Source: Candidatus Micrarchaeota archaeon
GTDB lineage: Archaea > Micrarchaeota > Micrarchaeia > Micrarchaeales > CABMGC01
Length of the DNA stretch: 64,000 bases
Assembly: GCA_021850805.1 (NCBI GenBank)
Contig: JAJZKO010000003.1
Coordinates: 8,246 to 72,245 of the forward strand
Direction: 5' to 3'
How positions within the stretch are numbered: position 1 is the first letter of the stretch; each line of letters opens with the position of its first letter. The notes below the pieces were generated by a model. It saw nothing but the letters and a program-made list of their open reading frames with translations. It had not been told where the DNA came from and ran no database searches. The translations under genes and the position numbers were made by a program. Shown one piece after another: positions 25,053-57,011 of the stretch.

Positions 25053-26552
25053 ATGGCACACATAAAATCTAGGAAACTGATTATAATCGGCATAGACTCC
25101 GCGCCTCTATGGCTGCTTAAGAAATTTTCTGCGAAGCGTTCCGGGAAAGATGGGTTCTCTGAAGTATTTGGTTTCGGGAAGAGAGGTGTAATGGACCTCG
25201 AATCAACTCTCCCCCCGATGACCGGTGCCGCGTGGCCGAGTTTCTATACCGGTCTGCAGCCTTCAAGGCACGGCTCCATGGACTTCTTTGTGCTTGACAG
25301 GCATTATACAAAACAGCTTGTATACTTCGACAATTCAAAAGGTGCGTTTTGGGATATCCTTGGAAGAAAAGGATTTGCAAGTTTCATAATCACTCCACCA
25401 ATGGCGGTCTCACCAAGCAGCGAAAAGAACGTCCAGATGATGTCCGGATGGCCCCTGGCCCCAAGATTTAATTCCAAGAAAATAGAAAAATACGCGAAAG
25501 AGAGCAGCTTTGCAGGAGAACCTGAGATAGAGAAGGAGCTAAAGGAAGGCAGGGTAACACTGGAAGAGGCGTCAGCACAGTACACCGCAAGCGCCAAAGC
25601 GAGGGCGGAGATGACAATGGAGATAGCCAAGCACGAGGATTTTGATCTGCTATTTTCGTGTTTTACTGAGACGGACAGGATGCAGCATTATTCGCTTAAC
25701 AATCGGAGATGGGAGGACTATGTAATGCCCATATACTCTGTAATATCTGATGTAATAAGGGAGATGTACAAGTACATATCGGGCAATTATGACGACTTTG
25801 CCATAATGATTGTTTCGGATCACGGCGCCCAGCCAATACAATCGAAATTTCTCATAAACTCGTGGCTGATACGTGAAGGATATGCTAACCTCAAGAAAAG
25901 CGTAGAGGAACAATACAACTCCCAAAAAAGCGGCCCTAATGCAAGATACGCCATAAGGGAACTGCTGATGAAGAGCAAGATGAGGAAGGTCTATGACAAA
26001 ATGCCAAGGAAGATGCACAATGCTGCATACAAAGTAGCCGGCAGCCTGCTCTCAGGGGCATCCGCAGGGAGCTATACCCGCATACACGATTTTGATTTCG
26101 ATATGGGGCGCACAAAAGCATTTGCATCCGTATCAAATGGGCCTGTCAGCATGATATGGATAAACGATTCCAGATTCGATACGCCCTCAGTTGCGAGTTC
26201 ATCTAAAAGAAAGGTAAAATATGAGATTAAGGGCAGGCTAATGAAGATAAAGTCTACTGGGAAAAGCGTCATCGCAAACGTTATAGACGGTGAAACTTAT
26301 TACGGAAAGAACCCCGCGTTCATAGCACCAGATCTGCTTATAGAGGCAAATCGCGGATACACGATAGACGTTTTCAACTATTCAAGTTCGTCTTTTTATA
26401 TGAAACCAGAGATATCACGGAGCGGTGATCATCAGAGGCACGGCATATTCGCTGTCAAGAACAGCGCAACGGATGCAAGATGGCCGGATAAGGGCGCACG
26501 GATAGGGGATATAAACGAATATATCCTAAGGTTTTTTGGTTCTAGGGGATGA
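25053..26552 (+). CDS. alkaline-phosphatase-superfamily protein (type I phosphodiesterase/nucleotide pyrophosphatase-like)
   Basis: IIIGIDSAP…LPPMTGAAWPSFYTGLQPSRHG…TETDRMQH…IVSDHGAQP. Confidence 0.65.
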   Translation: MAHIKSRKLIIIGIDSAPLWLLKKFSAKRSGKDGFSEVFGFGKRGVMDLESTLPPMTGAAWPSFYTGLQPSRHGSMDFFVLDRHYTKQLVYFDNSKGAFWDILGRKGFASFIITPPMAVSPSSEKNVQMMSGWPLAPRFNSKKIEKYAKESSFAGEPEIEKELKEGRVTLEEASAQYTASAKARAEMTMEIAKHEDFDLLFSCFTETDRMQHYSLNNRRWEDYVMPIYSVISDVIREMYKYISGNYDDFAIMIVSDHGAQPIQSKFLINSWLIREGYANLKKSVEEQYNSQKSGPNARYAIRELLMKSKMRKVYDKMPRKMHNAAYKVAGSLLSGASAGSYTRIHDFDFDMGRTKAFASVSNGPVSMIWINDSRFDTPSVASSSKRKVKYEIKGRLMKIKSTGKSVIANVIDGETYYGKNPAFIAPDLLIEANRGYTIDVFNYSSSSFYMKPEISRSGDHQRHGIFAVKNSATDARWPDKGARIGDINEYILRFFGSRG

Positions 26553-27613
26553 GAATGAGGGTATATCTGCTAGGTGGGCTAGGCCGCTTCGACAATTCGT
26601 CAGGCGAAGGCGTATCCACCTACATGTACGAGATATACCACGGTCTCAAGGCAAGCAAAAGCATCAAAGCAGATAAGATAGAATACCCAATACGAGATAG
26701 GACTGGCGGTGCGTACTCATGGTTCCGCATGGCGGTTATGGCATCTTTCAGCGATTATAGCGGTGCTGACATAATCCACAAAGTAGATGTAAAACCGATA
26801 AATCCTATCAGAAAAGGCAGGGCAAAAATTGTCTCTACAGCGCATGACTTTCAGCCTTTGATTGAGCCCGCGCTTGATTCTGACATGACTGTCTCGCTAA
26901 AAGGAAGGATCCGTCTTGCGCTAGAGACAAGATACTCCCTCAGGCTGATGCTAAAATCAGATTACCTGCTCGCGAATTCTACGCTTACAAAGAACGATGC
27001 TGTAAAGTTAGGCTTTGAGAGCAAGAGGGCATTTGTGATAAATCACGGGATAGGAAGGACCTACATCTCGCGTAAGATACGCAGAAAAGAGGGAAAAACG
27101 TGCGTTGTGGGATATATTGGTGCGTTCAGGTCGCGCAAAAACGTGGGGTTTGCAATACGCGCATTTAAGATGACCTCACATAAAAAGCTTGAGTTCAGGC
27201 TTTGGGGCAGCAAGAGATATGAATACGAAAAACTTGAATCTGGTGCAGGAGATGACAAACGCATACACTTTATGGGCTTCGCCCCAGCGCAAAAGATAGT
27301 GGATACATACGATAGTTTTGACGTATTTGTATTTCCCAGTCTCTATGAGGGAATGGGCTATGAGATATTGGAGGCAAAAGCGAGGCGTATACCAGTAATA
27401 ATATACAAGCACGCAAAAATTCCTGAGGAAGTAAGGCGCTACTGCATAGAGGCTAAAGACGAGTACGCAATGGCGGATGCTATCGAAAAAATATTCTCTA
27501 ACGGCCCGGATGATAAGATGCTGTCTAAGGCAATGCAAGACGCAAGAGGCTTCACTTGGGAAAAGACAATATCCAAAACTATAGATGCCTACGGAAAGAT
27601 CTGTGAGGCCTAG
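26549..27613 (+). CDS. GT-B glycosyltransferase (group 1 / GT4-like)
   Basis: C-terminal …DVFVFPSLYEGMGYEILEAKARRIPVI (EX7E region). The ATGA overlap with the upstream gene suggests co-translation. Confidence 0.75.
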   Translation: MRMRVYLLGGLGRFDNSSGEGVSTYMYEIYHGLKASKSIKADKIEYPIRDRTGGAYSWFRMAVMASFSDYSGADIIHKVDVKPINPIRKGRAKIVSTAHDFQPLIEPALDSDMTVSLKGRIRLALETRYSLRLMLKSDYLLANSTLTKNDAVKLGFESKRAFVINHGIGRTYISRKIRRKEGKTCVVGYIGAFRSRKNVGFAIRAFKMTSHKKLEFRLWGSKRYEYEKLESGAGDDKRIHFMGFAPAQKIVDTYDSFDVFVFPSLYEGMGYEILEAKARRIPVIIYKHAKIPEEVRRYCIEAKDEYAMADAIEKIFSNGPDDKMLSKAMQDARGFTWEKTISKTIDAYGKICEA

Positions 27614-28818
27614 TCTATTATCCCTATGCCTGCGAACCTTCCTGAATCATAAAGCAGGAATCTTCCCATCTCCGGACATTCAATAGCACTCTCTATAATA
27701 GTACTTTCCAAAAGCCTAATCTTTGCCTTCCCAGTGCCTAATGGCTTTATCGAGTGCGCTTCCTTGATCCTTCCGCTCTTTAAATCAACCTCGCCGAATA
27801 CCGCAACATCTGCCATAAGCTCAGAGCCATTCATCCTAAGTTGCACTTTTTTAGGAATCTTCTCTACAGAGAACACCATTGCATTAAATTCGGTACCGCA
27901 CCGCGGGTTGCTCTCCAGATCAAATCCTACACACCCACGCGTTGCATGTGCCCCAAAGATTTCCAGCGCCACATTCTGCCCTTCAGAAGCGGTGCGCATC
28001 TCCTTTCCTTTGACATATATAGAATTAACTACTGCGTTTCTTCCAACAGGCATAATTCGTATCTTCTGCCCTCTCTGCAACCTTCCGTTTACTATCTTTC
28101 CAGTATACAGCGTCTTTCTTCCGCTCTTTATGGTGCCCTGAAACAGGAGCCTCAGCCCATTACTGCTTCTCTTTTTAGCAGATGCCGCTTCGTAGACAAG
28201 CTCCATAAGTGGCTTGCCTACGTACCACCTTATACGTGCAGAGCGCTTTACAAGATTGTCTGCATTGTAAGCAGATATAGGGACAAAAACTACAGAACCA
28301 GGCTCAAATCCGATATTCGTGCAGAACCCATTTACAGCATCCATAATAAGCTCAAACTTCTCCTTTTTGTATGCAACAGCATCCATCTTGTTTACTGCAA
28401 CTACTACCCTGCTTATCCCCAGCAGCTTAGCCAGCATAAGGTGCCTTCTTGTCTGCTCAGTTATTCCCTCCCCATCCTTTGCAGATACCATGAGCACGGC
28501 AAAATCGCCATAGGATGCGCCGCTTATCATATTGCCTATGAGCTCTTCGTGACCCGGAACGTCTATGAATTCGAACGCAGCATCCTTGTAAGTGATCTGT
28601 GCCCTTGTGGTGTCTATTGTCAATCCACCTTCACGCTCCTCCTCAAAACTATCCAGTATAAAACCGGGCTCAAAGTTCCTTCCCAGCTTCCTGCTCACAT
28701 TTTTTGCCTCTTCAATCCGCTGTTTCGTAGCAGACCCCGTTGCTATCAGAAGGCTTCCTATTAAAGTAGATTTGCCATGATCCTTATTTCCCAGGAGGGT
28801 AACCCTTTTGATATCCAA
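27610..28818 (-). CDS. CysN/EF-1alpha-family translational-type GTPase (probable sulfate adenylyltransferase subunit 1-like); no APS-kinase domain
   Basis: G1 GNKDHGKST, LDSFEEEREGGLTID, G3 DVPGHEE, G4 NKMD, then two beta-barrel domains ending GRFLLYDSGRFAGIGIID. It uses a TTG start 8 nt after the cysD-like stop. Confidence 0.65.
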   Translation of the reverse strand: MDIKRVTLLGNKDHGKSTLIGSLLIATGSATKQRIEEAKNVSRKLGRNFEPGFILDSFEEEREGGLTIDTTRAQITYKDAAFEFIDVPGHEELIGNMISGASYGDFAVLMVSAKDGEGITEQTRRHLMLAKLLGISRVVVAVNKMDAVAYKKEKFELIMDAVNGFCTNIGFEPGSVVFVPISAYNADNLVKRSARIRWYVGKPLMELVYEAASAKKRSSNGLRLLFQGTIKSGRKTLYTGKIVNGRLQRGQKIRIMPVGRNAVVNSIYVKGKEMRTASEGQNVALEIFGAHATRGCVGFDLESNPRCGTEFNAMVFSVEKIPKKVQLRMNGSELMADVAVFGEVDLKSGRIKEAHSIKPLGTGKAKIRLLESTIIESAIECPEMGRFLLYDSGRFAGIGIID

Positions 28819-28826
28819 GCGAGCAC

Positions 28827-29615
28827 CTACATATACCCAAGAGCTCTCAGCTTCTCCATGACATATGCTTTTTCCTTGTCCTGCTCTCTCCCTGCCCTCT
28901 CTTCAGTCTCTGTTACCTTAAGTTCGTCCATTATCTGCCTTATGCTCTTCGCATTCGACTTTACAGGTACGGTGCAGTGCGTGCATCCCAGGCTCCTGTA
29001 CCTGTATCCGTTGCTTGAATAATAAAGCGGGTTCACTGGTACCTTCATCTTCATTGTATATTGCCATATATCTATCTCATTCCAATCAAGTATAGGATGA
29101 ACGCGTACGTGGCCCTTCGTATCCATCTTCGATGAATAATTGTTCCAAAGCTCTGCAGGCTGATCTTTGTAATTCCACTTGAACTCAGTGTCCCTCGGGC
29201 TAAAATACCTTTCCTTGGCCCGTATCCCATGTTCATCCCTGCGTATTGATACAATAAGTGCATCAAATCCATGTTCCTTCATCACTTCCTTCAGCGCGTC
29301 CGTCTTGTTTGATCCGCAACAGCTAAATCCCGAGAGCTCGGGCTTTATTCTGCTCTTCGCAACTATCAGATCCAGATTCCATTTTTTAGCGAGATCATCC
29401 CTGAACTTATATGTTTCGGGGAAGTCTATGCCATTGTCTATGTGTATCACTGGAAAAGGCACCTTTCCAAGAAATGCCCTGCGCGCAATCATTATCATTG
29501 CCGTTGAATCCTTGCCGCCAGACCACAGCGCAGCAACATTCCCAAACTTCTCCTTTGTCTCGCGTATTATATACGCGCTTTTCTCTTCCAGATTGCCTAT
29601 ATCCTGCATTATCAT
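28827..29615 (-). CDS. cysD: CysD-like PP-loop ATP pyrophosphatase (sulfate adenylyltransferase subunit 2 family)
   Basis: PP-loop ALWSGGKDS, IRRDEHGIRAKERYFSPRD, ELWNNY, DIWQY, YRSLGC and the C-terminal ERAGR…VMEKLRALGYM. It is collinear with E. coli CysD (…ERQGR…SMELKKRQGYF, from memory). Confidence 0.8.
   Translation of the reverse strand: MIMQDIGNLEEKSAYIIRETKEKFGNVAALWSGGKDSTAMIMIARRAFLGKVPFPVIHIDNGIDFPETYKFRDDLAKKWNLDLIVAKSRIKPELSGFSCCGSNKTDALKEVMKEHGFDALIVSIRRDEHGIRAKERYFSPRDTEFKWNYKDQPAELWNNYSSKMDTKGHVRVHPILDWNEIDIWQYTMKMKVPVNPLYYSSNGYRYRSLGCTHCTVPVKSNAKSIRQIMDELKVTETEERAGREQDKEKAYVMEKLRALGYM
28833..28862. repeat. 30-nt repeat, copy 1 (3' end of the cysD-like gene)
   Basis: ATACCCAAGAGCTCTCAGCTTCTCCATGAC (plus strand) is 29/30 identical to 29916-29945. 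Confidence 0.9.
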
Positions 29616-29903
29616 TCAATCCACCTTATTCATGTTTGAGAGCCCCTTGAGGTAAATCAGGGCGCCCTCGAAGTTCTTCCCGTCCCTTACTGCAACAGGA
29701 ACCTTCGAAACAAGCTTTTTCTTCGAGTCGTAAAGCTCTACATAAGACTTGTTCATGTCATCAGCCTTCCGGAGCCCATGCTCAAAGACAACGCGATAAT
29801 ACCTTATGCTGGAGCTGCCGAGCTTCTTCCGGAACCTATCCCAGTTCCTTACATCGTTGACAGACCATAACGAATCAACTATATTATCAATTTCCTTAAC
29901 CAT
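29616..29903 (-). CDS. hypothetical 95-aa protein (no Cys, no recognisable family)
   Basis: The ORF exactly fills the space between the RHH stop (29904) and the cysD-like start (29615) with zero-nt spacers on both sides. Confidence 0.5.
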   Translation of the reverse strand: MVKEIDNIVDSLWSVNDVRNWDRFRKKLGSSSIRYYRVVFEHGLRKADDMNKSYVELYDSKKKLVSKVPVAVRDGKNFEGALIYLKGLSNMNKVD

Positions 29904-30131
29904 TCAGTCACCCAAATACCCAAGAGCCCTCAGCTTCTCCATGACTGTGCTATTCTGCTTTGCTCCACCGCGCTTCTCCATCTCAAGTTCTGCTACAGTC
30001 TCACGCAAGACATACGTAGCGTAGTCTGAGACTGATGAGAAGCCTGTCTTGCCTATGAGCCTCTCTATATTATCGAACAGTGCAGTCGGTATTGTTATTG
30101 TTGTATACTTCCTTTTTGCATGTGCCGCCAA
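29904..30131 (-). CDS. ribbon-helix-helix (CopG/Arc-like) DNA-binding protein with a CysD-like C-terminal tail
   Basis: RHH core KYTTITIPTALFDNIERLIGKTGFSSVSDYATYVLRETV, tail …EMEKRGGAKQNSTVMEKLRALGYLGD. The TTG at 30131 is the preferred start because the TATA box and palindrome lie inside the longer ATG(30212) ORF. Confidence 0.6.
   Translation of the reverse strand: MAAHAKRKYTTITIPTALFDNIERLIGKTGFSSVSDYATYVLRETVAELEMEKRGGAKQNSTVMEKLRALGYLGD
29916..29945. repeat. 30-nt repeat, copy 2 (3' end of the RHH gene)
   Basis: ATACCCAAGAGCCCTCAGCTTCTCCATGAC. Both copies encode VMEKLRALGY on the minus strand. Confidence 0.9.
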
Positions 30132-30147
30132 GATATCACGAATGTAA

Positions 30148-30167
30148 TTTAATGTTGTAACATTAAA
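30148..30167. promoter_or_regulatory. perfect 20-bp palindrome (9-bp arms, 2-bp spacer), candidate RHH operator
   Basis: TTTAATGTT-GT-AACATTAAA. It lies between the TATA-like element and the expected transcription start of the RHH/cysDN-like operon. Confidence 0.45.
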
Positions 30168-30176
30168 ATATAAAAA
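30165..30176 (-). promoter_or_regulatory. TATA-like element of the RHH/cysDN-like operon
   Basis: The minus strand reads CCTTTTTATATTTT. The core lies about 25 nt upstream of the palindrome's distal edge and about 43 nt upstream of the TTG at 30131. Confidence 0.4.
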
Positions 30177-30195
30177 GGCTCCTGTCAGCAGGCTT

Positions 30196-30226
30196 TGTGT
30201 AAAAAGTGCCATGTATGTGTAAAAAG
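30196..30226. repeat. two direct copies of TGTGTAAAAAG spaced 20 bp apart, upstream of the RHH promoter
   Basis: The copies lie at 30196-30206 and 30216-30226, two helical turns apart. Confidence 0.6.
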
Positions 30227-30520
30227 CGGCGATTTTTACCTACTTGCCATCAAGACATAGTTGGTTCATGCCTCATCAATGCCTGTCGCATGCTAATGCA
30301 AATTTCGCCTAATCAGATACTAATCGCGGCAGACATCATCACATCGACCTATAATCATGGGTCATCGTGCCCCAGCCCTATCATCTATCTGCCGCAGGCT
30401 AAGGCAGTAATGTATGCAACTGAATGTTTTTAAGCCTAGGCAACCTGCTCATGCTGGAAACGGTTATAAAATACCGCGCGTTGATACTCTACTGTAAGTC
30501 ATTTTCAGAAGGCTGGAACC

Positions 30521-32852: not shown

Positions 32853-35606
32853 TCAGCTGCTGTTGTATAAGATCCTGAATACTTTCGTATCAGAATTGGA
32901 GTATACCTGCTGCATCCTGGCTACGGTCCCATTGGTATTCCATTCACATACATTATTGTTGCAGAAGTAAAGCAGTCTTATGAAATTGCTCTGTGCAAGT
33001 TCCGTGCCCATCATAAGCGCTCCTGTCATATTGCTGAAAGGCGGTTTGATCTCCGGGGGAGTTGTAGGGTTTGGAATACCCGAATAAGTTATCATGAACA
33101 TATCCCCATTAGTGTTGTTAAGCGTCTGTTTCAGGATGCTGTAATTCCCATCATTCTGATTATAAAATGCAACATATGAAAATGGCGAGAGAACTGTCTG
33201 CCCTGCCTTGGTATGCTCAACAACATACGCTCCTACCTCGCTTTGATTTGTCACGCTGACAAGTACCTTATATCCGCTGCTGCTTCCGAAGATGTAGTCT
33301 ATGCTGTTGCCGCTGACCGAAGGGCTGAAGTTGTTGAATTGTATATACCCGTAATAGCTCTCATTCAAGCTTATGTTGGCCTCGGTGTATATTCCGCTCA
33401 ATTCGTTAAGCCATGCATATCGTATCAGGAAATAGTCAGGTCTACCATTTATGTTGCTGGTTAAGAACTTCGGATCAGGGCTTGAATTAAGCAGCCAGGC
33501 AGCAAAAGGGTCTGCCTTGGAGGCATTCTGCGAGCCAACGCTATCCGTAACGCTTATCCTCTGTGCCCATCCTTCTATCACACTCCCATCCGGCCAGAGC
33601 GTAAGGAATGTGCTATTTGCAGGGGTATTTGTGCGTATCCAGTTCAGTGCGCTGAGGAATGTTGGATTTACAAAGTCCGCCTGCGTTACGTCTGAAGAAT
33701 ATGCTATGTCAAAATAGCCCAGCACAAATATTATCAGCACAACCATGAAAAGGTATTTGCTATTTACGCTGCTCAAGAAAAGATAGGAATAAACGCTTAT
33801 TGCAAGGGCAACGCCAAGCAGTATTACTGCATAAACTAATCCTAAAGTTATCTGCAGCGCATTAAACTGGAATGCAAAGAAAGCAATGGAAAAAGCAGCG
33901 AGCAAAATGGCCCACAGGCGTTTTCTTTCCTTAGCTACATTATCCTTAAACGGTCCGTACTGGGAGAACAGAAGCAGGGAGACTATTATAAAAGCCGCCG
34001 CAAGAACTAGCGATAGAAAGACACCTATACCTGCAAAATTGTAAAGCTCTATACCTATTCCAAAGCTCACGAATACAGAAAGAAGCCCATCTGAAAGCAT
34101 ATGGAGCCTTCCTTTGCGAATAGAATTAATTATCAGCCAGTATACGGTATAAGCAGAGAATATTGCTATCGGCACAGCGACAAGGGAATTGAATCTTATT
34201 GCATGTATCTGCAGGTAAGCTGTTACAATAAAATATGCAGCAAATGCTGCGAAAGCTTCTCCAGCTTCAAATCTTATCTTCGGTATTCCTGATATTATGC
34301 CTTTACCTGAATCGTAAACCTGCATAAAGAAGTAAGGCAGCATTGTTGCGAGCAGTATTACGAAATCTATGAAGAAGTATACTGTGGATATGTTGCATGA
34401 TGGCGAATTAAGGTTTAGTACTGCGGCAAGCGCCATGAAAATTGATGTAGGGTTAGCAAAGAGGTTTATCCCGAAACTGTCAAACAGGAAACTGAAGCTT
34501 GGTGGCTGGAGCTCTTGTATGGTCGCACTGAATTTATTGTTTATTATCGCTCCGTTATCTACAAACACCGAACAGAGGAATGGATGGGCGAAAATATCAA
34601 GCGCTATTATAAAAACTGCGGCTATGGCGACCGCATATATAATTTTAGCTTCAGACGTATAAAAACCATCTGCGGCAAGCTTCTTGAAGATGCTGCGCCT
34701 TTCCCCGTAACCAAGGCCCAGCCACGCCGCAATGGTAATAATGAGTATGGCTACAAAGTAGATTCCAGTAAGCGGCTGGACTATTATGAATCCCAGCGCT
34801 TCGTACGATCTCACGAGGAGCCACCATATCACAAGGGCAAGTGCCATATACGTTACGTTTGATCTGAGCCTCTTGTTGTCATATACGAATCCCAAAAGCA
34901 TTATCAGGAGCATTGCAAGGTAATAGACTGCAGTGGCGAACGGCGCACCATTCCACACATAATTGCAGATGCTCAGAAAGATACCAGACATTGCCGCAAA
35001 AAGCAGCTTCCTTTTTTGTTTCTCCTCCCTGAAAATCTGCAGAGCAAAGACCAGTGACATTATCAGGAATATAGTAATGAATCCATCCCCTCTGTATACA
35101 AGCGCATTTGTCCTGGCTGCATCCCCTGAGCTTAGTGCGACAAAAGCCATTACCAGAAGGGCAAAAAACCTGTCTTTGCTTAGATATCTTGAGAGTAGGT
35201 ATGCCCCAAGCACATCAAAAATACCGAATAATACCGGTATAAGTCTCATTATTGTATAGTAATTTACGCCAAAATAGCGCAGTACCATATAAGGGATAAG
35301 GGTTACCTCATAAAGGCCATTCGGTTCTATTACGGGTGTGTGGGCAGGCCATCCAGAGAGGGCAGAATACTTCGGTATCTGGAAGTTATTCGCTACAGCC
35401 TGCCTTATTATGGAATAGTGATAAAACCCGTCTGGCTCAAAGAAACCCGTGAGGTGATACATACCCACCCTTAGGTAAATCGTAACCCCAAGGACTACTA
35501 CCACTCCTATATAAAAAAGCAGATTTTTAATATCGAATGAAGATAAGTTTCTTCTGCCGCCTGCAGCGTCATTATTGTTAAATAATCCCATTTTCATCAG
35601 AAACAC
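32853..35606 (-). CDS. aglB: STT3/AglB-like oligosaccharyltransferase (GT-C fold)
   Basis: 917 aa with at least 13 TM segments and a large C-terminal soluble domain. The first-loop FFEPDGFYHY resembles the STT3 EFDP-F-Y motif, and LWPDGS sits where WWDYG is expected after the last TM. The C-terminal domain is rich in N-x-S/T. Confidence 0.6.
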   Translation of the reverse strand: MFLMKMGLFNNNDAAGGRRNLSSFDIKNLLFYIGVVVVLGVTIYLRVGMYHLTGFFEPDGFYHYSIIRQAVANNFQIPKYSALSGWPAHTPVIEPNGLYEVTLIPYMVLRYFGVNYYTIMRLIPVLFGIFDVLGAYLLSRYLSKDRFFALLVMAFVALSSGDAARTNALVYRGDGFITIFLIMSLVFALQIFREEKQKRKLLFAAMSGIFLSICNYVWNGAPFATAVYYLAMLLIMLLGFVYDNKRLRSNVTYMALALVIWWLLVRSYEALGFIIVQPLTGIYFVAILIITIAAWLGLGYGERRSIFKKLAADGFYTSEAKIIYAVAIAAVFIIALDIFAHPFLCSVFVDNGAIINNKFSATIQELQPPSFSFLFDSFGINLFANPTSIFMALAAVLNLNSPSCNISTVYFFIDFVILLATMLPYFFMQVYDSGKGIISGIPKIRFEAGEAFAAFAAYFIVTAYLQIHAIRFNSLVAVPIAIFSAYTVYWLIINSIRKGRLHMLSDGLLSVFVSFGIGIELYNFAGIGVFLSLVLAAAFIIVSLLLFSQYGPFKDNVAKERKRLWAILLAAFSIAFFAFQFNALQITLGLVYAVILLGVALAISVYSYLFLSSVNSKYLFMVVLIIFVLGYFDIAYSSDVTQADFVNPTFLSALNWIRTNTPANSTFLTLWPDGSVIEGWAQRISVTDSVGSQNASKADPFAAWLLNSSPDPKFLTSNINGRPDYFLIRYAWLNELSGIYTEANISLNESYYGYIQFNNFSPSVSGNSIDYIFGSSSGYKVLVSVTNQSEVGAYVVEHTKAGQTVLSPFSYVAFYNQNDGNYSILKQTLNNTNGDMFMITYSGIPNPTTPPEIKPPFSNMTGALMMGTELAQSNFIRLLYFCNNNVCEWNTNGTVARMQQVYSNSDTKVFRILYNSS

Positions 35607-38248: not shown

Positions 38249-38605
38249 ATGCTTCTTGGTATAAAGCGTATATACGACAAGGCGGGAATAACCGAGGGCA
38301 AAAGAGTTCTTGTCGATAGGCTATGGCCCAGAGGCGTAAAGCGCAGCACATCAAATATAGATGTCTGGCTTAAAGATGTGGCTCCTAGCACAGAACTTAG
38401 GGAATGGTTCTCCCATGATCCTGAAAAGTGGGAAGAGTTCAAGGAGCGTTACAGGAAAGAGCTCAAGGGCAGCAAGGCATTCGAAGAACTGGTTAAGATG
38501 GCAAGGGAAGGCGACATAACCCTGATATACTCATCGAAGGACGAGAAGCACAATAACGCAGAAGTCCTGCAGGAAGAGATACAAAAATCACTCAGCCACT
38601 CTTAA
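38249..38605 (+). CDS. DUF488 family protein
   Basis: KRIYD…VLVDRLWPRGVKR…DVWLKDVAPSTELREWF…ITLIYSSKDEKHNNA. Confidence 0.75.
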   Translation: MLLGIKRIYDKAGITEGKRVLVDRLWPRGVKRSTSNIDVWLKDVAPSTELREWFSHDPEKWEEFKERYRKELKGSKAFEELVKMAREGDITLIYSSKDEKHNNAEVLQEEIQKSLSHS

Positions 38606-39911
38606 GGTCCCCCATATTTGCGACTGCAAGGGGGATCAGCATCTCCTCCTTTGACATACCGCCATGATGACCCCTGAAGGAAACCTTTCTCATACCGTTC
38701 TCCTTATGCATATACCAGATCATATTATTCCTTCTTGGAAGCACCAGAACATCGCCCACCCTTGTCCTGAACTCAGTCTCAGGTTTCTTACTTCCAAAAA
38801 GCCCTTCGCGTATTGCATAATCCATGTCAACGAACTCTGCATCCTTCCCTAATTCCGATCTGAGGCTATCTATGGTGCCTTCTTTCATATCCTCCTTTAT
38901 GTAAAGAAACATATCGCGCGGACTTCCAGCAGGCGAGAGCCGTGCTCCATCCTTTTTCAGCCTGAAAGCACTCTCAAGTTTCTTCTTTCCATTGAGATAT
39001 ATTACCCTCGATGGATCCACGTCTATCTGGCCGTGGTCTGCAGTGATGACTATCCTTGTCTTACGAGCATACCTCATGTCCGTTCTCTCCACGAGCCTCC
39101 TCATTGCGAAAGAGAAGAGCGCTATCTCGTTTTTCGCCTGAACAGATGAAGGGCCATACTTATGCTCTGCATCGTCTATGCCTGACCAGTAGATGTAAAA
39201 GTATGATTTTCCCCTGGCCTTGCGCATTCCCTCTTCTATATTGGCAAGCATCTCCCCAAGAGAGGAATGCGGCATTATATTGGCTCCTTCAAAGAGCCTC
39301 TTTGAGTATACGCTTTTACAGACTGCTGACTTGAGCAGGGCATAGCTATCTATCCCCTCCTCGGCGAATAACTTCGAAAAAGGCCTTCCCATGAATAGGC
39401 GCGATCCGCTTATCTCCCCGGCAAGCGCATCAGGCTGCTCAGCGCCAAGTTTTCTGAATGGCAGGGTCTCTATTATTGAGTCTACCTTTTCCATGTATAT
39501 ATTCCATTCGGCAAGAAGATGCTCTGAAGGAAGAAGGCCCGTGCTCACTGTAGTGAGTGCCGCAGCAGTTGTCGAAGGAAATACGCTGGTAAGCGGGCAT
39601 ACAAAGCCATTTCTGTTCACAGCATCCACAAACGGCTCCCTGTGGGCATCAGTCCAGCTTTTGTAGCCGAATCCGTCCACCAGGAAGAAGAGAACAGTAT
39701 CCACATCTTCCCCGATTCCGCTCCTGCTTCTTATATCCCCCGGGAGCCCCGCGTGTACGTATCCGCTCCCCAGTGACTGTGCGACTGTAGGCATTATGTT
39801 GGAAAGGCAATAACCTTCATAATCAGGCCTTATGAAATCCCTTAAGAATCGGTTCTTAAGTATCCTGCTCTCCGGCTTTTCGTAGATCACGCAACCAACC
39901 TTGGGAATCAA
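38592..39911 (-). CDS. alkaline-phosphatase-superfamily protein (type I phosphodiesterase-like), second copy in the window
   Basis: FFLVDGFGYKSW…TSVFPSTTAAALTTVSTG…ITADHGQ…GHHGGMS. Confidence 0.65.
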   Translation of the reverse strand: MIPKVGCVIYEKPESRILKNRFLRDFIRPDYEGYCLSNIMPTVAQSLGSGYVHAGLPGDIRSRSGIGEDVDTVLFFLVDGFGYKSWTDAHREPFVDAVNRNGFVCPLTSVFPSTTAAALTTVSTGLLPSEHLLAEWNIYMEKVDSIIETLPFRKLGAEQPDALAGEISGSRLFMGRPFSKLFAEEGIDSYALLKSAVCKSVYSKRLFEGANIMPHSSLGEMLANIEEGMRKARGKSYFYIYWSGIDDAEHKYGPSSVQAKNEIALFSFAMRRLVERTDMRYARKTRIVITADHGQIDVDPSRVIYLNGKKKLESAFRLKKDGARLSPAGSPRDMFLYIKEDMKEGTIDSLRSELGKDAEFVDMDYAIREGLFGSKKPETEFRTRVGDVLVLPRRNNMIWYMHKENGMRKVSFRGHHGGMSKEEMLIPLAVANMGDLKSG

Positions 39912-46543: not shown

Positions 46544-47035
46544 ATGTCCAGTGCAGCAGGGCCAGCCAGGATTTGGCTGGCATTTTCTATATTTTCCTTT
46601 ATACTAGGCATGGTCTATGCGTCTTCAAGCACCTCAATAGGATCTCAGAACTATACTGTAGCATATGCAAATTCTACAATCAACAGCACAGCCAATTACA
46701 TAGAGACAATAAACCAGAGCGGCTACCTCATATTCTATCCGAATCTATCGAAGGCATATTCATACCTGGAAAAGGCCAGGGGCATATACACGAAATCCCC
46801 TTCGGCTGCAGTTGCGTATGCAGATCAGGCGGAGGCCTCTGCCAGAGAGCAGTATGCTGCCATGGCACAGTATAAGCTCTATTCGTTTGCAGCAGCCGCT
46901 ATCTTTACCTTGGTCATGGGCGCAATCCTATACCTTTTCATGATACCTGTTAAGAGAAAGGGCAGCAGAAAGGCACATGCAAGAACGGCAAAGGGAAAGC
47001 CGGCGCGAAAGAAGGCTAAGAAGAATTCTGCCTGA
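46544..47035 (+). CDS. small secreted, C-terminally anchored protein, sequon-dense
   Basis: It has an N-terminal signal-like helix and five N-x-S/T sites (NYT, NST, NST, NQS, NLS) within about 45 aa, followed by a C-terminal TM helix and a basic tail. Confidence 0.5.
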   Translation: MSSAAGPARIWLAFSIFSFILGMVYASSSTSIGSQNYTVAYANSTINSTANYIETINQSGYLIFYPNLSKAYSYLEKARGIYTKSPSAAVAYADQAEASAREQYAAMAQYKLYSFAAAAIFTLVMGAILYLFMIPVKRKGSRKAHARTAKGKPARKKAKKNSA

Positions 47036-48149
47036 GGCTATACATCCGCCCTCTCCAGGTTATCCTGCGCATAAAAGCTGCGCACGAAAGATTATAAACA
47101 TATAAAAACGGCATCAGCGCAGACGCTATAATTACACTTGCAGTAGCATCTCCTCCTATCCTCCTCTTTGTCCTGTATGCTGTTATTGCTGCATGGAGGA
47201 GCAACACCAGATAAATAGGATTGTATAATGAAAGAGCTATTCCTGTAACTATCAGCAACGATTCGGAAGAGTAGTAGACCAACCCTACATAAAGGTTTCT
47301 CCTTTGCCCAAGCACGCTCAATGCTGCCTGCCTATTTGACCACTCGACAAACTCCGGAAAAGTATCAACCGATCCAACTTCAGGGTGATATCTTTCAATA
47401 TACCATATTCCCAGCCCATCTTTCTTTGCCATCTTCATTATTGTTATGTCATCAGAGACTGAGAATTCAGATTCGAGGAAGAACTTCATCCTCTTCTCTC
47501 CTGCTACGAGGCTTCTCCTGAAGGCCATCGATCCGCCCCATACAAACCTTGTCGCATCGCTCTCCATTAGCCCCTCTCCTACAAAACCCCACGCAAATTT
47601 GATGAGAGATACAATACCCCCCTCTGGTACAAAACGCGGAAACATTGTAGATACTCCTACGCTCCTATCAGCTAAAGGCATAACAAGCTCAGAAAGCCAT
47701 CTTCTGCCTACCCGTATATCCGAGTCCGCCACTACATATACATCATATCCAGGATTCATCTTAATGGCGCTTGCTATTGCCCTGACCTTCCCGCTGCACC
47801 TGCTGCATTGCACATTTGATATGATGTGGCGCATTTTCGCTTTCTCTATTGCTTCAACTGCCGGGTCATCCCTATCATCGACTACTGCTATGGCCCTGAA
47901 GTCCGGATACTCCTGCATTTTTATTGACTTGAGATTCGCAACCAGGCCGCGGTCCTTGCCCCGGCAAGGAACTATAACAAGTACACGCGGCAAATATCTT
48001 CCCTGGCTCTGCACCGTCTTACTCTTCCTATTTCCGCCCTTCAACTTAATCGTATCTGCCGCAAGCATCAAGGCAAATATTGCTGAAACGGCGATTATAT
48101 AATACTGCAAAAGTGCGCCCAATTTTCCACCTTTCCAATCTGCAAACAT
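47016..48149 (-). CDS. GT-A family 2 glycosyltransferase (membrane-associated, GT2/GT21-like)
   Basis: VLVIVPCRGKD…AVVDDRDDP…VVADSDI… (DxD), followed by C-terminal TM helices. Confidence 0.7.
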   Translation of the reverse strand: MFADWKGGKLGALLQYYIIAVSAIFALMLAADTIKLKGGNRKSKTVQSQGRYLPRVLVIVPCRGKDRGLVANLKSIKMQEYPDFRAIAVVDDRDDPAVEAIEKAKMRHIISNVQCSRCSGKVRAIASAIKMNPGYDVYVVADSDIRVGRRWLSELVMPLADRSVGVSTMFPRFVPEGGIVSLIKFAWGFVGEGLMESDATRFVWGGSMAFRRSLVAGEKRMKFFLESEFSVSDDITIMKMAKKDGLGIWYIERYHPEVGSVDTFPEFVEWSNRQAALSVLGQRRNLYVGLVYYSSESLLIVTGIALSLYNPIYLVLLLHAAITAYRTKRRIGGDATASVIIASALMPFLYVYNLSCAAFMRRITWRGRMYSLRQNSS

Positions 48150-48179: not shown

Positions 48180-49220
48180 ATGCCATACCACAGTTTCGAG
48201 ACTATAATACTGCCTTCGTTTCTCGCATTCGTAATAACCATAATAGGGACAGAGTTCATAATGGTATACCTTAAAGGTGCAGGCATAATAGCAGAAGACA
48301 GAAACAAGAGCAAGCCTGTGATACTTCCAAGCAGCGGAGGAGTGGCTGTGGCATTTGGGCTTATAGTTGGCATACTGTCATACACGTTCGGCGGGTCTTT
48401 CCTATTTGTCCCTGTTCTTGATGTAGAGAAACTTCTTTCGATAGCACTCTCAATAGTCCTGATAACATTCGTGGGCTTCCTTGACGATGTAAACGTGAAA
48501 AGCCACAGGGTCGCAAGCACAGGTATAAAGGATATACGGCAGGGCTTAAGGCAGTGGCAGAAGCCGCTCCTTACTTTTGTCGGTGCCCTTCCCCTCATGG
48601 CGATAAACGCCGGCGTAGAAGTTGTCTTTGTTCCATTTATTGGGAGAATAGCGCTAGGAATATTCTATCCTTTGTTAGTGCTCCCAATAGCAATAATATT
48701 CGTCTCCAACTCCTTCAACCTCCTGGGAGGGTTTGATGGATTACAGCCATCAATGGGCGCAATAGCTGCGCTCGGCCTGGTAATATACTCTTTCTTCTAC
48801 GGAAATTACATGGGGCTATTCCTTTCTTCGATACTGCTTGCATCCCTATTGGGATTTATCCCATTCAATACATATAGGGCAAAGATAATTCCAGGTGACA
48901 GCTTCACATACGCAGTAGGGGCATCACTTGTGGCTGTAATGGTCATGGGCAATGCGGAGGCGTTCGGCATTATAATATTCGTGCCGTGGATCCTGGAGTT
49001 CTTCCTGCATCTGCGCAGGAGATTCAAGGTATCGGATCTTGGCATACGCCAGAAGGATGGCACATTCAAGGCTCCATACGGCAGAAAAATATACAGCCTC
49101 ACGCATGCGGTAATGAACCTCAAGCCAATGAGGGAGAAAGATATAACACGCTACCTATCCGCAGTCGAGGTTATGTTTGTGCTTCTGGGGTTTGGACTTA
49201 AGCTTGCCGGATTACTCTGA
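48180..49220 (+). CDS. aglH: UDP-GlcNAc:dolichyl-phosphate GlcNAc-1-phosphotransferase (MraY/WecA/AglH family)
   Basis: GFLDDVN and NSFNLLGGFDGL motifs, about 10 TM segments. Confidence 0.8.
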   Translation: MPYHSFETIILPSFLAFVITIIGTEFIMVYLKGAGIIAEDRNKSKPVILPSSGGVAVAFGLIVGILSYTFGGSFLFVPVLDVEKLLSIALSIVLITFVGFLDDVNVKSHRVASTGIKDIRQGLRQWQKPLLTFVGALPLMAINAGVEVVFVPFIGRIALGIFYPLLVLPIAIIFVSNSFNLLGGFDGLQPSMGAIAALGLVIYSFFYGNYMGLFLSSILLASLLGFIPFNTYRAKIIPGDSFTYAVGASLVAVMVMGNAEAFGIIIFVPWILEFFLHLRRRFKVSDLGIRQKDGTFKAPYGRKIYSLTHAVMNLKPMREKDITRYLSAVEVMFVLLGFGLKLAGLL

Positions 49221-55721: not shown

Positions 55722-56372
55722 ATGGGTGTGCGCATAATTGCAGACAACAGGGAAAGATCCGAGAGTATCCTGGAAACCCTCCTCGCGATGGATTCGTCAG
55801 TTGAGATCCTGCAGCTGCCTGTAGGTGATTATGTTCTCTCCGATAGGATATGCGTGGAGAGGAAGCGTTCATCAGACTTCGAAAACTCAATAATAGATGG
55901 CCGTCTCTTTGAGCAGGCAAAACGCCTTGCAGAAGGGTTCGAGAGACCTGTAATGATAATAGAAGCTTCAGAGCAGCAGCCACGCATAAGGCACAACGCG
56001 CTGGTTGCCGCGGTGCTTAAGCTCTATGCTACATATGGCATACAGGTGATATTCACGGAGAGCGAGGAGGATACGGCATTTACCCTGCACAAGATAGCTG
56101 AATTCGAGCAGGAAGAGAACAAGAGGCAGCCTGTGATAAGGGGGCAGAGAAGGAAACGTACTGATTATGACATACAGTTGAGTATCCTTAGTTCTATACC
56201 GGGCATAGGTGAGAAGCTTGCTTCATGCCTCCTCTCGAATTTCGGAAGTGTGAAGAACGTCATGATGGCAGATACCAAAGAACTGCAGAAGGTCAACAAG
56301 ATAGGCAGGAAAAAGGCTGAAGCCATATACCGCTCCCTTAACGGCGCGCCTAGCAACGGGGCATTCAAATGA
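55722..56372 (+). CDS. xpf: short archaeal XPF/ERCC4-family nuclease with a C-terminal (HhH)2 domain
   Basis: IIADNRE…LPVGDYVLSDRICVERKRSSDF…GRLFEQ and IPGIGEKLA…KIGRKKAEAI. Confidence 0.8.
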   Translation: MGVRIIADNRERSESILETLLAMDSSVEILQLPVGDYVLSDRICVERKRSSDFENSIIDGRLFEQAKRLAEGFERPVMIIEASEQQPRIRHNALVAAVLKLYATYGIQVIFTESEEDTAFTLHKIAEFEQEENKRQPVIRGQRRKRTDYDIQLSILSSIPGIGEKLASCLLSNFGSVKNVMMADTKELQKVNKIGRKKAEAIYRSLNGAPSNGAFK

Positions 56373-57001
56373 GACTTATAGAGAGAATATTCAATGGCGG
56401 GGAACAGGGCATCATAAAGAGGAGCAAGGTAATAGCAGAACACGCTAAAAAGGCTAATGCACTAATGCTCCAGGTAATATCTGGAAAGAGTGACATATCA
56501 GGAATAAGGAGGCTCGAGAGGCTCTCGGATTCGGAGCTATTCAACCTCACCAACTCCGTCACATCAGGCGCAATAGCACCTAACCTGATAGATGACGTCA
56601 TAAGATTCCTGAACACCGAGGACGATATAGTTGACAATATATTCAACCTTTCAAGGGCAGTTATACGCTACGATGGCGGTTCGCCTGCGATTAGGAAGTA
56701 CCTCAACTCAAATCTCGGCAAGTTCAATCTATTCACAGACAGGGCAATCACTCTTCTTATAGAAATGCACTCCGCAGATAGGATTTCCGAGATGAGGAAA
56801 TTCAGGACAGAGATAGAAAAATACGAGAGGAAGGTTGACGACGTGAAGGATGCAATGCTGAACTATGCGTACGAGGCCAAGCTAAACTACAAACAGTTTG
56901 CGCACATCACCGACATAGCGTATCTGGGAGACAACATACTGGACAGCTGCGAAGATTCTGCCGACAGGCTGCTGGGAATAATGCTCTCGATAGCTACATG
57001 A
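56369..57001 (+). CDS. DUF47 / PhoU-like helical protein (phosphate-transport-regulator-like)
   Basis: 210-aa all-helical protein immediately upstream of a PiT-like permease, which is the usual DUF47-PiT pairing. Its ATG overlaps the xpf stop (ATGA). Confidence 0.5.
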   Translation: MRLIERIFNGGEQGIIKRSKVIAEHAKKANALMLQVISGKSDISGIRRLERLSDSELFNLTNSVTSGAIAPNLIDDVIRFLNTEDDIVDNIFNLSRAVIRYDGGSPAIRKYLNSNLGKFNLFTDRAITLLIEMHSADRISEMRKFRTEIEKYERKVDDVKDAMLNYAYEAKLNYKQFAHITDIAYLGDNILDSCEDSADRLLGIMLSIAT

Positions 57002-57011
57002 GTGTGATGAG

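Follow-up and report, generated by a model that had tools for sequence, protein, structure and literature searches.

A predicted ribbon-helix-helix regulator and a CysD-like subunit share a C-terminal tail in a putative sulfate-activation operon of archaea

Introduction

Sulfate is activated in Escherichia coli and Pseudomonas syringae by CysD-CysN (PDB entry 1ZUN for the latter), a GTP-driven heterodimeric ATP sulfurylase in which the gene of a subunit with the PAPS_reduct fold precedes that of a GTPase of the EF-Tu/EF-1α family. CysN is thought to derive from the archaeal elongation factor aEF1A (PMC4342817), and one paper places its contact with CysD where EF-Tu contacts aminoacyl-tRNA. Archaeal homologues of CysDN have been reported in anaerobic methanotrophs (ANME) and a few methanogens (PMC6286981). 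Here we describe a related four-gene operon in a 64-kb stretch of DNA from a Candidatus Micrarchaeota (DPANN) archaeon (contig JAJZKO010000003.1), hereafter called the window, which encodes a predicted ribbon-helix-helix (RHH) regulator, a 95-residue protein named orf95, a CysD-like protein and a CysN/EF-1α-like GTPase. A first reading of this DNA, the original prediction, had proposed either a sulfate-activation module acquired laterally, possibly feeding glycan sulfation, or a repurposed machine with two dedicated small partners. It had recorded neither a direct repeat and C-terminal tail common to two of the genes, nor four unusual Cys residues, nor a promoter with a putative operator, all of which we report below, and its overall interpretation is partly supported by our data. 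We lean slightly towards the view that the locus is an autoregulated operon for an archaeal-type GTP-driven heterodimeric ATP sulfurylase, whose product, adenosine 5′-phosphosulfate (APS), would serve the sulfation of surface glycans independently of 3′-phosphoadenosine 5′-phosphosulfate (PAPS), the tail of the RHH protein coupling regulator and enzyme.

With CysD-CysN, the pair of the window shares its gene order, 52 invariant CysD residues, a C-terminal end homologous to ..GY[FM] and, in the GTPase, intact G1, G3 and G4 motifs and catalytic His residue. It differs in that the CysD-like protein, 262 residues long, lacks a segment of ~35 residues present in 1ZUN and in E. coli CysD and has four additional invariant Cys residues, in that the GTPase, which is not fused to an APS kinase, gives a better score with aEF1A than with CysN, and in that the genes are found without a cysC, cysH, cysI or cysJ context and with an RHH partner that carries a copy of the tail.

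The CysDN paralogues of rhizobia, NodP and NodQ, which are 32% and 29% identical to the window proteins, respectively, serve the sulfation of a glycoconjugate (the Nod factor) rather than assimilation. With its fused APS kinase, NodQ makes PAPS, which is used by NodH, a classical sulfotransferase. In contrast, the window harbours neither a kinase nor a classical sulfotransferase, but only enzymes of the alkaline phosphatase (AP) superfamily. Proteins of the latter type are implicated in archaeal glycan sulfation. Thus, in Halobacterium salinarum, deletion of Agl30 and Agl31, sulfatase-like members of the AP superfamily encoded among N-glycosylation genes, abolishes the sulfation of an N-linked tetrasaccharide, and the passages of that source on these proteins name no sulfate donor (PMC11980604). 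Agl7 of Haloferax sulfates a dolichyl-phosphate-bound hexose (PMC3892788).

Results and discussion

A C-terminal tail common to the CysD-like protein and the RHH regulator

The 3′ ends of the CysD-like and RHH genes have in common a 33-nt direct repeat with 94% identity, and both proteins end with VMEKLRALGY (..YVMEKLRALGYM for the CysD-like protein and ..TVMEKLRALGYLGD for the RHH protein). We collected 116 loci, comprising 27 from genomes, several around RHH or orf95 homologues, 80 from metagenomes and the window itself (~1.0 Mb in all, with flanks of 6-10 kb), and scored all their open reading frames (ORFs) with hidden Markov models built from the families. The tail is found at the C-terminus of 106 CysD-like proteins and of 98 out of 104 RHH proteins, with near variants of it on the remaining six, and it is present on only 4 of 4,822 other ORFs, three of which code for the translation factor aSUI1. 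In RHH proteins of Dehalococcoidales, Woesearchaeota, Aenigmatarchaeota, Bilamarchaeum and others, it reads h-x-x-[KR]-L-[KRQ]-x-L-G-Y. Residues L67, L70, G71 and Y72 of the RHH protein are invariant across distant phyla, and the linker before the tail varies. Judging from these alignments, the conservation of the tail exceeds what a local duplication would produce. The tail is homologous to the ends of canonical CysD proteins (..MELKKRQGYF in E. coli, ..MEKKKREGYF in NodP and ..FERLRATGYL in Niveispirillum), and four orf95 homologues have a C-terminal extension with the same KLxALGY tail. In the literature, we found no description of the CysD C-terminus in 1ZUN.

The two copies of the tail coding sequence within a genome are identical at 28-30 of 33 nt, and those of other lineages at 16-24 of 33 nt. 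Synonymous differences co-vary in both copies: TTA, GCG and GGA are used in both copies of one close relative (locus L002), CTG and GCT in both copies of the window and of L001 (copies at ~5668 and ~6751 in L001 and L002), which indicates short-tract gene conversion between the two genes of the operon. Across these sequences, the tail behaves as a portable module, and one under strong selection.

A short contig of 1,043 bp (L035) carries the end of an RHH gene (2-118; ..KLKALGYIQ), a gene for a tailed orf95 homologue (120-518; ..KLKALGYM) and, in convergent orientation (635-1042), a gene for a protein of the PAPS_reduct family without the CxxC cysteines (..SLGSTIDT..) that ends with ..KKLRELGYT. 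The tail is therefore found on a second kind of PP-loop enzyme as well.

We attribute to chance the tail-like endings of aSUI1 (..LLKELGY) and of a second GTPase (..RLRLTGY) that some loci encode. The same probably holds for chain O of PDB entry 4V91 (uL13), which ends with ..VAKQLAALGY, and for the aSUI1 protein encoded at 10211-10498 of L049 (..KLLKELGYST). We record the uL13 and aSUI1 endings since the presumed receptor of the tail is a paralogue of EF-1α.

The regulator, its promoter and orf95

The RHH family comprises 341 members, mostly of 72-78 residues, named CopG/Arc/MetJ regulators in their sources. The original prediction had the RHH gene start at the ATG at 30212, giving 102 residues. 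We replaced this start by the TTG at 30131-30129, which yields 75 residues and is the most likely one because the homologues are 72-78 residues long and because a TATA box and a palindrome lie inside the 5′ part of the longer frame. In the AlphaFold2 model of the 75-residue protein (predicted local distance difference test score, pLDDT, of 84), an extended segment (residues 9-15) leads into two helices (16-26 and 34-53), and a short tail helix (62-69) comes after a linker. Its best fold matches are Arc (1PAR) and Omega (2BNZ), with TM scores of 0.5-0.6 and E values >1, which is not significant for so small a protein. The protein has no Pfam hit, and a profile search of the PDB gave a weak match to the RHH domain of NikR (E 0.4) and a chance-level match to the end of uL13 in 4V91 (..QLAALGY).

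TAATGT-N4-ACATTA, an inverted repeat located after the TATA box and before the start codon, has this single match in the window, for 0.14 expected by chance. RHH promoter regions contain it in 26 cases, every one within the orf95-bearing clade, versus 9 of 1,960 background windows. At the same site, other RHH clades have other palindromes, TACATA-N4-TATGTA or TAATTA repeats. As the palindrome between the TATA box and the start changes with the regulator clade, the RHH protein most likely binds it upstream of its own start codon, and it can be read as an autorepressor. Four Woese- or Nanoarchaeota-like loci (L016, L021, L023 and L026) encode a tandem RHH protein of 107-111 residues, with two strand-helix-helix units before the tail. 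The promoter palindrome of this clade is TACATA-N4-TATGTA. Two distinct RHH genes, both with the tail, follow one another in many Chloroflexota-like loci.

This organization resembles that of type II antitoxins and NikR-like regulators, in which a small RHH protein is encoded first in an apparently self-repressed operon with a promoter palindrome, and a C-terminal extension probably binds a partner. It differs from them in that the window gives no toxin or defence match and in that the tail copies the catalytic subunit of the enzyme itself, for which we found no precedent. A defence or toxin-antitoxin system was considered and rejected, PADLOC giving only weak cross-hits for the PP-loop protein (BrxP, QueC and SspD) and none for the GTPase or the RHH protein.

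The orf95 protein belongs to no Pfam, NCBIfam or PADLOC family. An exhaustive profile-free search yielded 52 homologous clusters of 90-130 residues, none of them informative, and a word-index search yielded two relatives. W21 and Y36 are invariant among the homologues. The AlphaFold2 model (pLDDT 84, predicted TM score 0.74) consists of two helices packed on a small sheet and has no match in the PDB or BFVD, with best E values of 0.78 and 0.097. The ratios of nonsynonymous to synonymous substitution rates (dN/dS) relative to two related genomes are 0.02-0.16 over all four genes, i.e. strong purifying selection, with 0.045-0.074 for orf95 and 0.04-0.07 for the RHH gene, and these low values indicate that the latter two are real genes. 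In one locus (L033, 5660-6384), a tailed RHH gene and a tailed orf95 homologue are divergent, and a Memo gene adjoins them as in the window. The fixed position of orf95, its tailed relatives and the pairing in L033 suggest a role alongside the regulator or the GTPase and not in catalysis.

A candidate partner for the tail

We infer that the tail docks on the GTPase, because the GTPase is the only component that is always present, its gene following that of the CysD-like protein in 78 of 78 loci whose sequence extends far enough downstream, and because the only known partner of canonical CysD is CysN. A parallel exists in the ribosomal stalk protein aP1, whose C-terminal peptide binds aEF1A between domains 1 and 3, in a pocket with F331, I423, R409 and R140 (PMC6791870; PDB 3WY9). 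In both cases a short amphipathic C-terminal peptide with an aromatic end would meet a GTPase of the EF-1α family, but the motifs differ (LxxLFG versus KLxALGY) and the parallel is one of analogy only. The four aEF1A residues correspond to F316, I400, R386 and K131 of the window GTPase. R386 is kept in 68 of 70 family members, positions 316 and 400 are hydrophobic in nearly all of them, and the residue at position 386 is G or N in E. coli CysN and NodQ. We regard an aP1-type pocket as a possible docking site of the tail, as a lead only.

The tail might instead bind another partner, such as the AP-superfamily enzyme, the body of the CysD-like protein, the membrane or a protease, or else the RHH protein might be no repressor but a dimeric scaffold bridging two enzyme complexes. 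The residues that follow GY would fit a different partner, as they vary in RHH proteins (GYI, GYLD, GYINNDK), whereas CysD-like proteins always have GYM; so would the tailed RHH and orf95 genes of L033, without adjacent CysD-like or GTPase genes. We nevertheless consider these alternatives unlikely, in view of the homology of the tail to that of canonical CysD, with CysN as its only known partner, of the constant presence of the GTPase and of the largely conserved stalk-pocket residues (PMC6791870), and since a promoter-proximal palindrome that changes with the RHH clade favours DNA binding over a scaffold.

The CysD-like subunit and the GTPase

The CysD-like protein matches PAPS_reduct (PF01507, E 1e-38), with SGGKDS at residues 32-37, and passes the cutoff of the NCBIfam CysD model PRK05253 (NF003587; 294 bits for a cutoff of 195). 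The description of a CysD-like protein with a PP-loop in the original prediction is upheld. The closest solved structure is P. syringae CysD (1ZUN_A, 185 bits). An alignment with E. coli CysD, Sinorhizobium meliloti NodP and Niveispirillum CysD reveals 52 invariant residues, among them those of the PP-loop, of the RRDE, KER, R..R.LG and ER.GR..D motifs and of the terminal GY, and the same adenylyl-transfer chemistry is therefore expected. By homology, we infer that the protein forms APS from ATP and sulfate.

Residues C99, C100, C211 and C214 are invariant across the family. They align residue for residue with the cysteines of eCCGirKiepL and SIGCepCT in the APS reductase of Pseudomonas aeruginosa (2GOY), and likewise with those of the Mycobacterium tuberculosis enzyme (7LHR), whereas 1ZUN CysD and E. 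coli PAPS reductase do not have this set, three of the four being missing from canonical CysD. The aligned residues of 2GOY and 7LHR are [4Fe-4S] ligands, and the cluster adjoins the sulfate of APS in the 2GOY structure. On the strength of this alignment, the CysD-like subunit probably carries a [4Fe-4S] cluster on its four Cys residues. It shares the PAPS_reduct fold and the CC...S-x-G-C-x-x-C-T pattern with APS reductases but has the CysD tail in place of their ECG[IL]H motif, and scores 185 bits against CysD versus 27 bits against the reductase. The catalytic motif ECGxH is not present in the protein and no Cys residue follows C214, the C-terminus being ..EKLRALGYM. The subunit thus combines features of CysD and of APS reductase.

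A megaplasmid of Niveispirillum cyanobacteriorum (L037, 1200-10800) carries, in a stretch without annotation in its record, a sir-like gene, an APS-reductase-type cysH, a short cysD, a cysN-cysC fusion and a cysJ-like gene. The short CysD is 264 residues long and 42% identical to the window protein, has neither CC nor CxxC and ends with ..RLRATGYL; the CysH protein has ECGIH.

In the GTPase, Pfam recognizes GTP_EFTU, domain 2 and the eEF1A C-terminal domain. Neither Pfam nor NCBIfam finds an APS-kinase domain, in agreement with the earlier description of a 402-residue protein with G motifs and no fused kinase. At the G1, G3 and G4 residues, among them the catalytic His of G3 (H90), conservation within the family is at least 95%. 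The protein scores 265 and 242 bits against EF-1α models, above its score for CysN but below the cutoffs of these models (265 versus 502), and 219 bits against Aeropyrum pernix aEF1A versus 167 against CysN (1ZUN_B). Over the whole family, the scores are 185-297 bits with aEF1A and 144-280 with E. coli CysN, compared with ~200 between aEF1A and CysN. From such pairwise scores, by which the affinities of the GTPase and the CysD-like protein were judged with three outgroup sequences, the family is not nested among the close relatives of bacterial CysN, and a position near the archaeal root of CysN would fit. With scores between aEF1A and CysN for the GTPase, and with a CysD-like subunit of Fe-S type, the pair bears on the origin of the CysDN machine from an archaeal elongation factor.

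Distribution and gene order

The core of RHH, CysD-like and GTPase genes is found in archaea of the Micr-, Woese-, Nano-, Aenigm- and Altiarchaeota, Jordarchaeia, Nitrososphaerota and Methanosarcinales, and in bacteria of the Chloroflexota (Dehalococcoidales) and one actinomycete. This spread over many archaeal phyla, together with GTPase scores that are at least as high against archaeal EF-1α as against CysN, lends no support to the lateral acquisition from bacteria that had been envisaged. The RHH gene is located within 1.5 kb upstream in 66 of 80 loci, and elsewhere in the locus in several more. By contrast, orf95 is present in 26 of the 80, every time between the RHH and CysD-like genes and, among taxonomically named genomes, only in Micrarchaeota and one metagenome-assembled genome (MAG) labelled Marsarchaeota. 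Of the two dedicated small partners postulated originally, the RHH protein is thus conserved, whereas orf95 is specific to a Micrarchaeota-like clade; the survey of their co-occurrence in gene neighbourhoods, suggested at the time, shows the core with the RHH gene to recur widely.

In two unrelated lineages, a homing-endonuclease gene separates the gene of the CysD-like protein from that of the GTPase. A Micrarchaeota MAG (L013, 6620-7525) has a free-standing LAGLIDADG gene there, and its CysD-like gene appears to be frameshifted. In a Chloroflexota MAG (L017, 3084-3569), the gene is GIY-YIG-like, as judged from sequence.

Public records name these proteins 'sulfate adenylyltransferase subunit 2', 'EF-1alpha' or 'subunit 1', 'CopG family regulator' and 'hypothetical protein', and metagenomic papers count such genes as sulfur-cycle genes of DPANN archaea. 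Our literature searches found no account of Fe-S-type cysteines in CysD, of an RHH partner, of the shared tail or of a link with AP-superfamily sulfotransferases.

Pathway context

Searches with E. coli proteins (tblastn) detected no homologues of CysC, CysI or CysJ in the window or in any of the 116 loci, and CysH matched only the CysD-like gene. Pfam scans of ~50 window proteins revealed no Sat, APS kinase or sulfotransferase. The statement that the 64 kb harbour no cysC, cysH or sulfite reductase gene is therefore confirmed, and ordinary cysDN genes beside cysC or cysH, sought in related genomes, were not found in the 116 loci.

A gene of the AP superfamily, of the PF01663 'Phosphodiest' or PF00884 'Sulfatase'-like type, is present in 31 of 37 loci with full flanks, which substantiates the connection proposed originally with the adjacent glycosyltransferase and AP-superfamily genes. 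In one large clade, an AP-superfamily form of 230-260 residues is encoded within the operon, in the order CysD-AP-GTPase or GTPase-AP. None of the metal ligands D15, D208, H212, D256, H257 and H460 of the AP-superfamily enzyme varies, and 51 of 52 sequences have Thr or Ser at position 57. The window enzyme has no solved relative and no NCBIfam name. A TauE/SafE-type anion permease is an operon member in many loci, with the order RHH-RHH-TauE-CysD-GTPase-AP (TauE and PF01663 confirmed). Other recurrent neighbours are glycosyltransferases of family 4 (GT4), Wzx-like flippases, a UDP-sugar epimerase-like protein and a carbamoyltransferase. In L030, the carbamoyltransferase gene (Pfam Carbam_trans_N/Carbam_trans_C) adjoins a sulfatase-like gene, another likeness to the NodP-NodQ system.

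The window is rich in surface-glycosylation genes (Table 1). Its second PF01663 gene may code for another transferase of the same pathway, and the 917-residue membrane protein may be an oligosaccharyltransferase. There is no TauE gene in the window. The PiT family, to which the PHO4 transporter belongs, includes a sulfate permease of Bacillus, and this transporter could thus be the sulfate uptake route. Neighbours of the PF01663 or PF00884 type among glycosyltransferase, flippase and STT3-like genes recall the setting of Agl30 and Agl31, from which the window enzyme differs in being of the PF01663 rather than the sulfatase type; the comparison is by description, and we know of no report that links these two proteins to CysDN.

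The lack of APS-kinase and reductive genes, and the presence of TauE permeases and intact AP-superfamily enzymes among glycan-synthesis genes, indicate that APS is most likely a direct sulfuryl donor and is not made for Cys synthesis.

A proposed route and its alternatives

In the route that we slightly favour, sulfate, which is abundant in acid mine drainage, would be taken up, in other lineages by the TauE permease of the operon. The Fe-S CysD-like subunit would adenylylate it to APS, and the EF-1α-like GTPase encoded just downstream would provide the driving force by GTP hydrolysis, as CysN does. APS would pass, without 3′-phosphorylation, to the neighbouring AP-superfamily enzyme, which would add sulfate to a glycan, lipid-linked or at the surface, that the adjacent glycosyltransferases make. 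The 75-residue RHH repressor would shut its own promoter at the palindrome between the TATA box and the start codon. Its tail, hxxKLxALGY, copies that of the CysD-like subunit. Both tails would dock at the same site of the GTPase, and repression would depend on whether the enzyme complex is occupied or on its nucleotide state, in a partner switch comparable to that of an antitoxin tail on its toxin. The orf95 protein would be a clade-specific accessory, which has the same tail in some genomes.

Several points weigh against this reading. The formation of APS, Fe-S binding and GTPase coupling are extrapolated from homology, the RHH assignment from a structural model and weak matches, and the target of the tail is itself deduced. 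The two enzymes score below the strict models of their presumed families, with 215 bits for a cutoff of 397 for CysD (TIGR02039) and 222 for 336 for CysN (TIGR02034). The short CysD of Niveispirillum, within a canonical cysH-cysD-cysNC cluster, shows that CC...CxxC is not needed for CysD function, and the cysteine cluster therefore seems to be a feature of the family rather than a requirement of a sulfurylase. L033 has no CysD-like or GTPase gene within 6 kb of its tailed RHH and orf95 genes; either the enzyme genes have been relocated or the small proteins act independently of them. Beyond the flanks of 6-10 kb and the 64-kb window, these genomes could still code for an APS kinase or a PAPS-type sulfotransferase, and we know of no enzyme of the AP superfamily shown to use APS; our literature searches found no APS-dependent sulfotransferase of this superfamily. 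Finally, three small metatranscriptomes from the same study had no contigs on the operon, which is uninformative as to its expression.

Some of these points would suit a repurposed pair that adenylylates or thiolates a target other than sulfate (selenate or molybdate, a nucleotide or tRNA base as with the Fe-S enzymes TtuA and NcsA, or a glycan precursor), the AP-superfamily enzyme transferring the group. The scores below the strict cutoffs (including 218 bits for a cutoff of 413 with NF009214), a set of four cysteines that canonical CysD lacks, a GTPase nearer to the tRNA-binding aEF1A and the lack of a downstream sulfate pathway all go in this direction. Yet 52 residues are invariant with true CysD, among them all of the ER.GR..D...GY segment at the C-terminus, the cysteines correspond to those of APS reductase, where the cluster lies beside the sulfate of APS, TauE/SafE-type permeases for sulfur oxyanions are encoded inside the operon, and no genes for tRNA binding or sulfur relay are found nearby, which makes such a function quite unlikely. 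Highly improbable is an ordinary assimilatory cysDN pair from bacteria, with an unrelated regulator and an incidental ORF: public annotation as sulfate adenylyltransferase subunits 1 and 2, the PRK05253 score and the related short CysD in the canonical Niveispirillum cluster would agree with it, but there is no cysC, cysH, cysI or cysJ in ~1 Mb of flanks, sulfur-cycle genes are reported to be nearly absent from DPANN archaea (PMC12153355), the RHH gene is conserved alongside the pair in different phyla and has the tail in common with it, orf95 has a dN/dS of 0.05-0.07 and 52 homologous clusters, and the GTPases are at least as near to aEF1A as to CysN.

A bolder idea, which we put forward as doubtful, is that KLxALGY is a portable GTPase-docking peptide copied from the catalytic subunit by the repressor and, in some genomes, by orf95, and that the Fe-S CysD-like/GTPase pair is the missing APS donor of archaeal AP-superfamily sulfotransferases. 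If the proposed sulfation route and its regulation were correct, the repressor would directly sense the state of the enzyme complex, in a partner-switch circuit that links a G protein with a repressor and of which we have seen no description, and its copied tail would offer a new and compact means of tying transcription to the state of an enzyme driven by a G protein. APS rather than PAPS would be delivered for glycan sulfation in many archaea and some Chloroflexota, by a self-contained route of uptake, activation and transfer for PAPS-free sulfation of the cell surface, which would provide sulfotransferases of the Agl30/Agl31 type with a testable sulfate donor. Many genes named 'sulfate adenylyltransferase' or 'arylsulfatase' in DPANN and other archaea would then serve neither sulfur assimilation nor scavenging by sulfatases, and counting them as sulfur-cycle capacity of DPANN archaea may mislead.

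Layout of the locus and strain variation

The four minus-strand ORFs abut with spacers of 0, 0 and 8 nt, as described originally; the coordinates hold. The 8-nt spacing between the CysD-like and GTPase genes is identical in L001 and L002. Coordinates of the operon and of other features of the window, whose GC content is ~46%, are given in Table 1. The rest of the window codes for ordinary archaeal housekeeping functions (ribosomal proteins, tRNA synthetases, TFB, topoisomerases and aRF1), and a scan for RNA elements found no tRNAs and no Rfam families in it.

Table 1. Features of the operon and of its surroundings, in window coordinates
Feature	Position	Strand	Remarks
EF-1α/CysN-like GTPase	27610-28818	-	402 aa, TTG start; G1 GNKDHGKST, G3 DVPGH, G4 NKMD
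8-nt spacer between CysD-like and GTPase genes	28819-28826	-	With stop codon reads TAGGTGCT; Shine-Dalgarno-like AGGTG
CysD-like PP-loop adenylyltransferase (predicted)	28827-29615	-	262 aa; PP-loop residues 32-37; C99, C100, C211, C214; tail ..VMEKLRALGYM
33-nt direct repeat, copy 1 (CysD-like tail)	28830-28862	-	94% identical to copy 2
orf95 accessory protein (putative)	29616-29903	-	95 aa
RHH-type (CopG/Arc-like) regulator (predicted)	29904-30131	-	75 aa from TTG; C-terminal tail ..VMEKLRALGYLGD
33-nt direct repeat, copy 2 (RHH tail)	29913-29945	-	94% identical to copy 1
Inverted repeat TAATGT-N4-ACATTA (putative RHH operator)	30150-30165	.	Between TATA box and RHH start
TATA-box-like element of operon promoter	30165-30176	-	TTTTTATATTTT; sequence reading; same position in related loci
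Cytoplasmic alkaline-phosphatase-superfamily enzyme	25053-26552	+	PF01663; Thr57 likely nucleophile; candidate sulfotransferase
GT4 glycosyltransferase	26549-27613	+	Pfam Glyco_trans_1_4, Glycos_transf_1; convergent with GTPase gene, 4-nt end overlap
STT3-like multi-pass membrane protein	32853-35606	-	917 aa; weak, below-cutoff STT3 and DUF6798 matches
Second PF01663 AP-superfamily gene	38592-39911	-	439 aa; 9 kb from operon; DUF373 and glycoside-hydrolase-like genes adjoin
GT2 gene	47016-48149	-	Surface-glycosylation gene
Glycos_transf_4 (GlcNAc-1-P-transferase-like) gene	48180-49220	+	Surface-glycosylation gene
PhoU_div/DUF47 gene and PHO4 (PiT-family) transporter	56369-57926	+	Adjacent

The nearest genomes are Candidatus Micrarchaeota MAGs, whose CysD-like proteins are 96-97% identical to that of the window. 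DNA of the window is present in mine-drainage, tailings and sediment metagenomes, the habitat being sulfate-rich acid mine drainage. Strain variants in acid-mine-drainage metagenomes are mostly spaced by 3 nt within both large genes. One run (X1) over positions 27600-30300 shows several assembly joints inside the CysD-like/RHH region, and at least two strains of the operon that co-exist in mine-drainage metagenomes and differ mainly at third codon positions.

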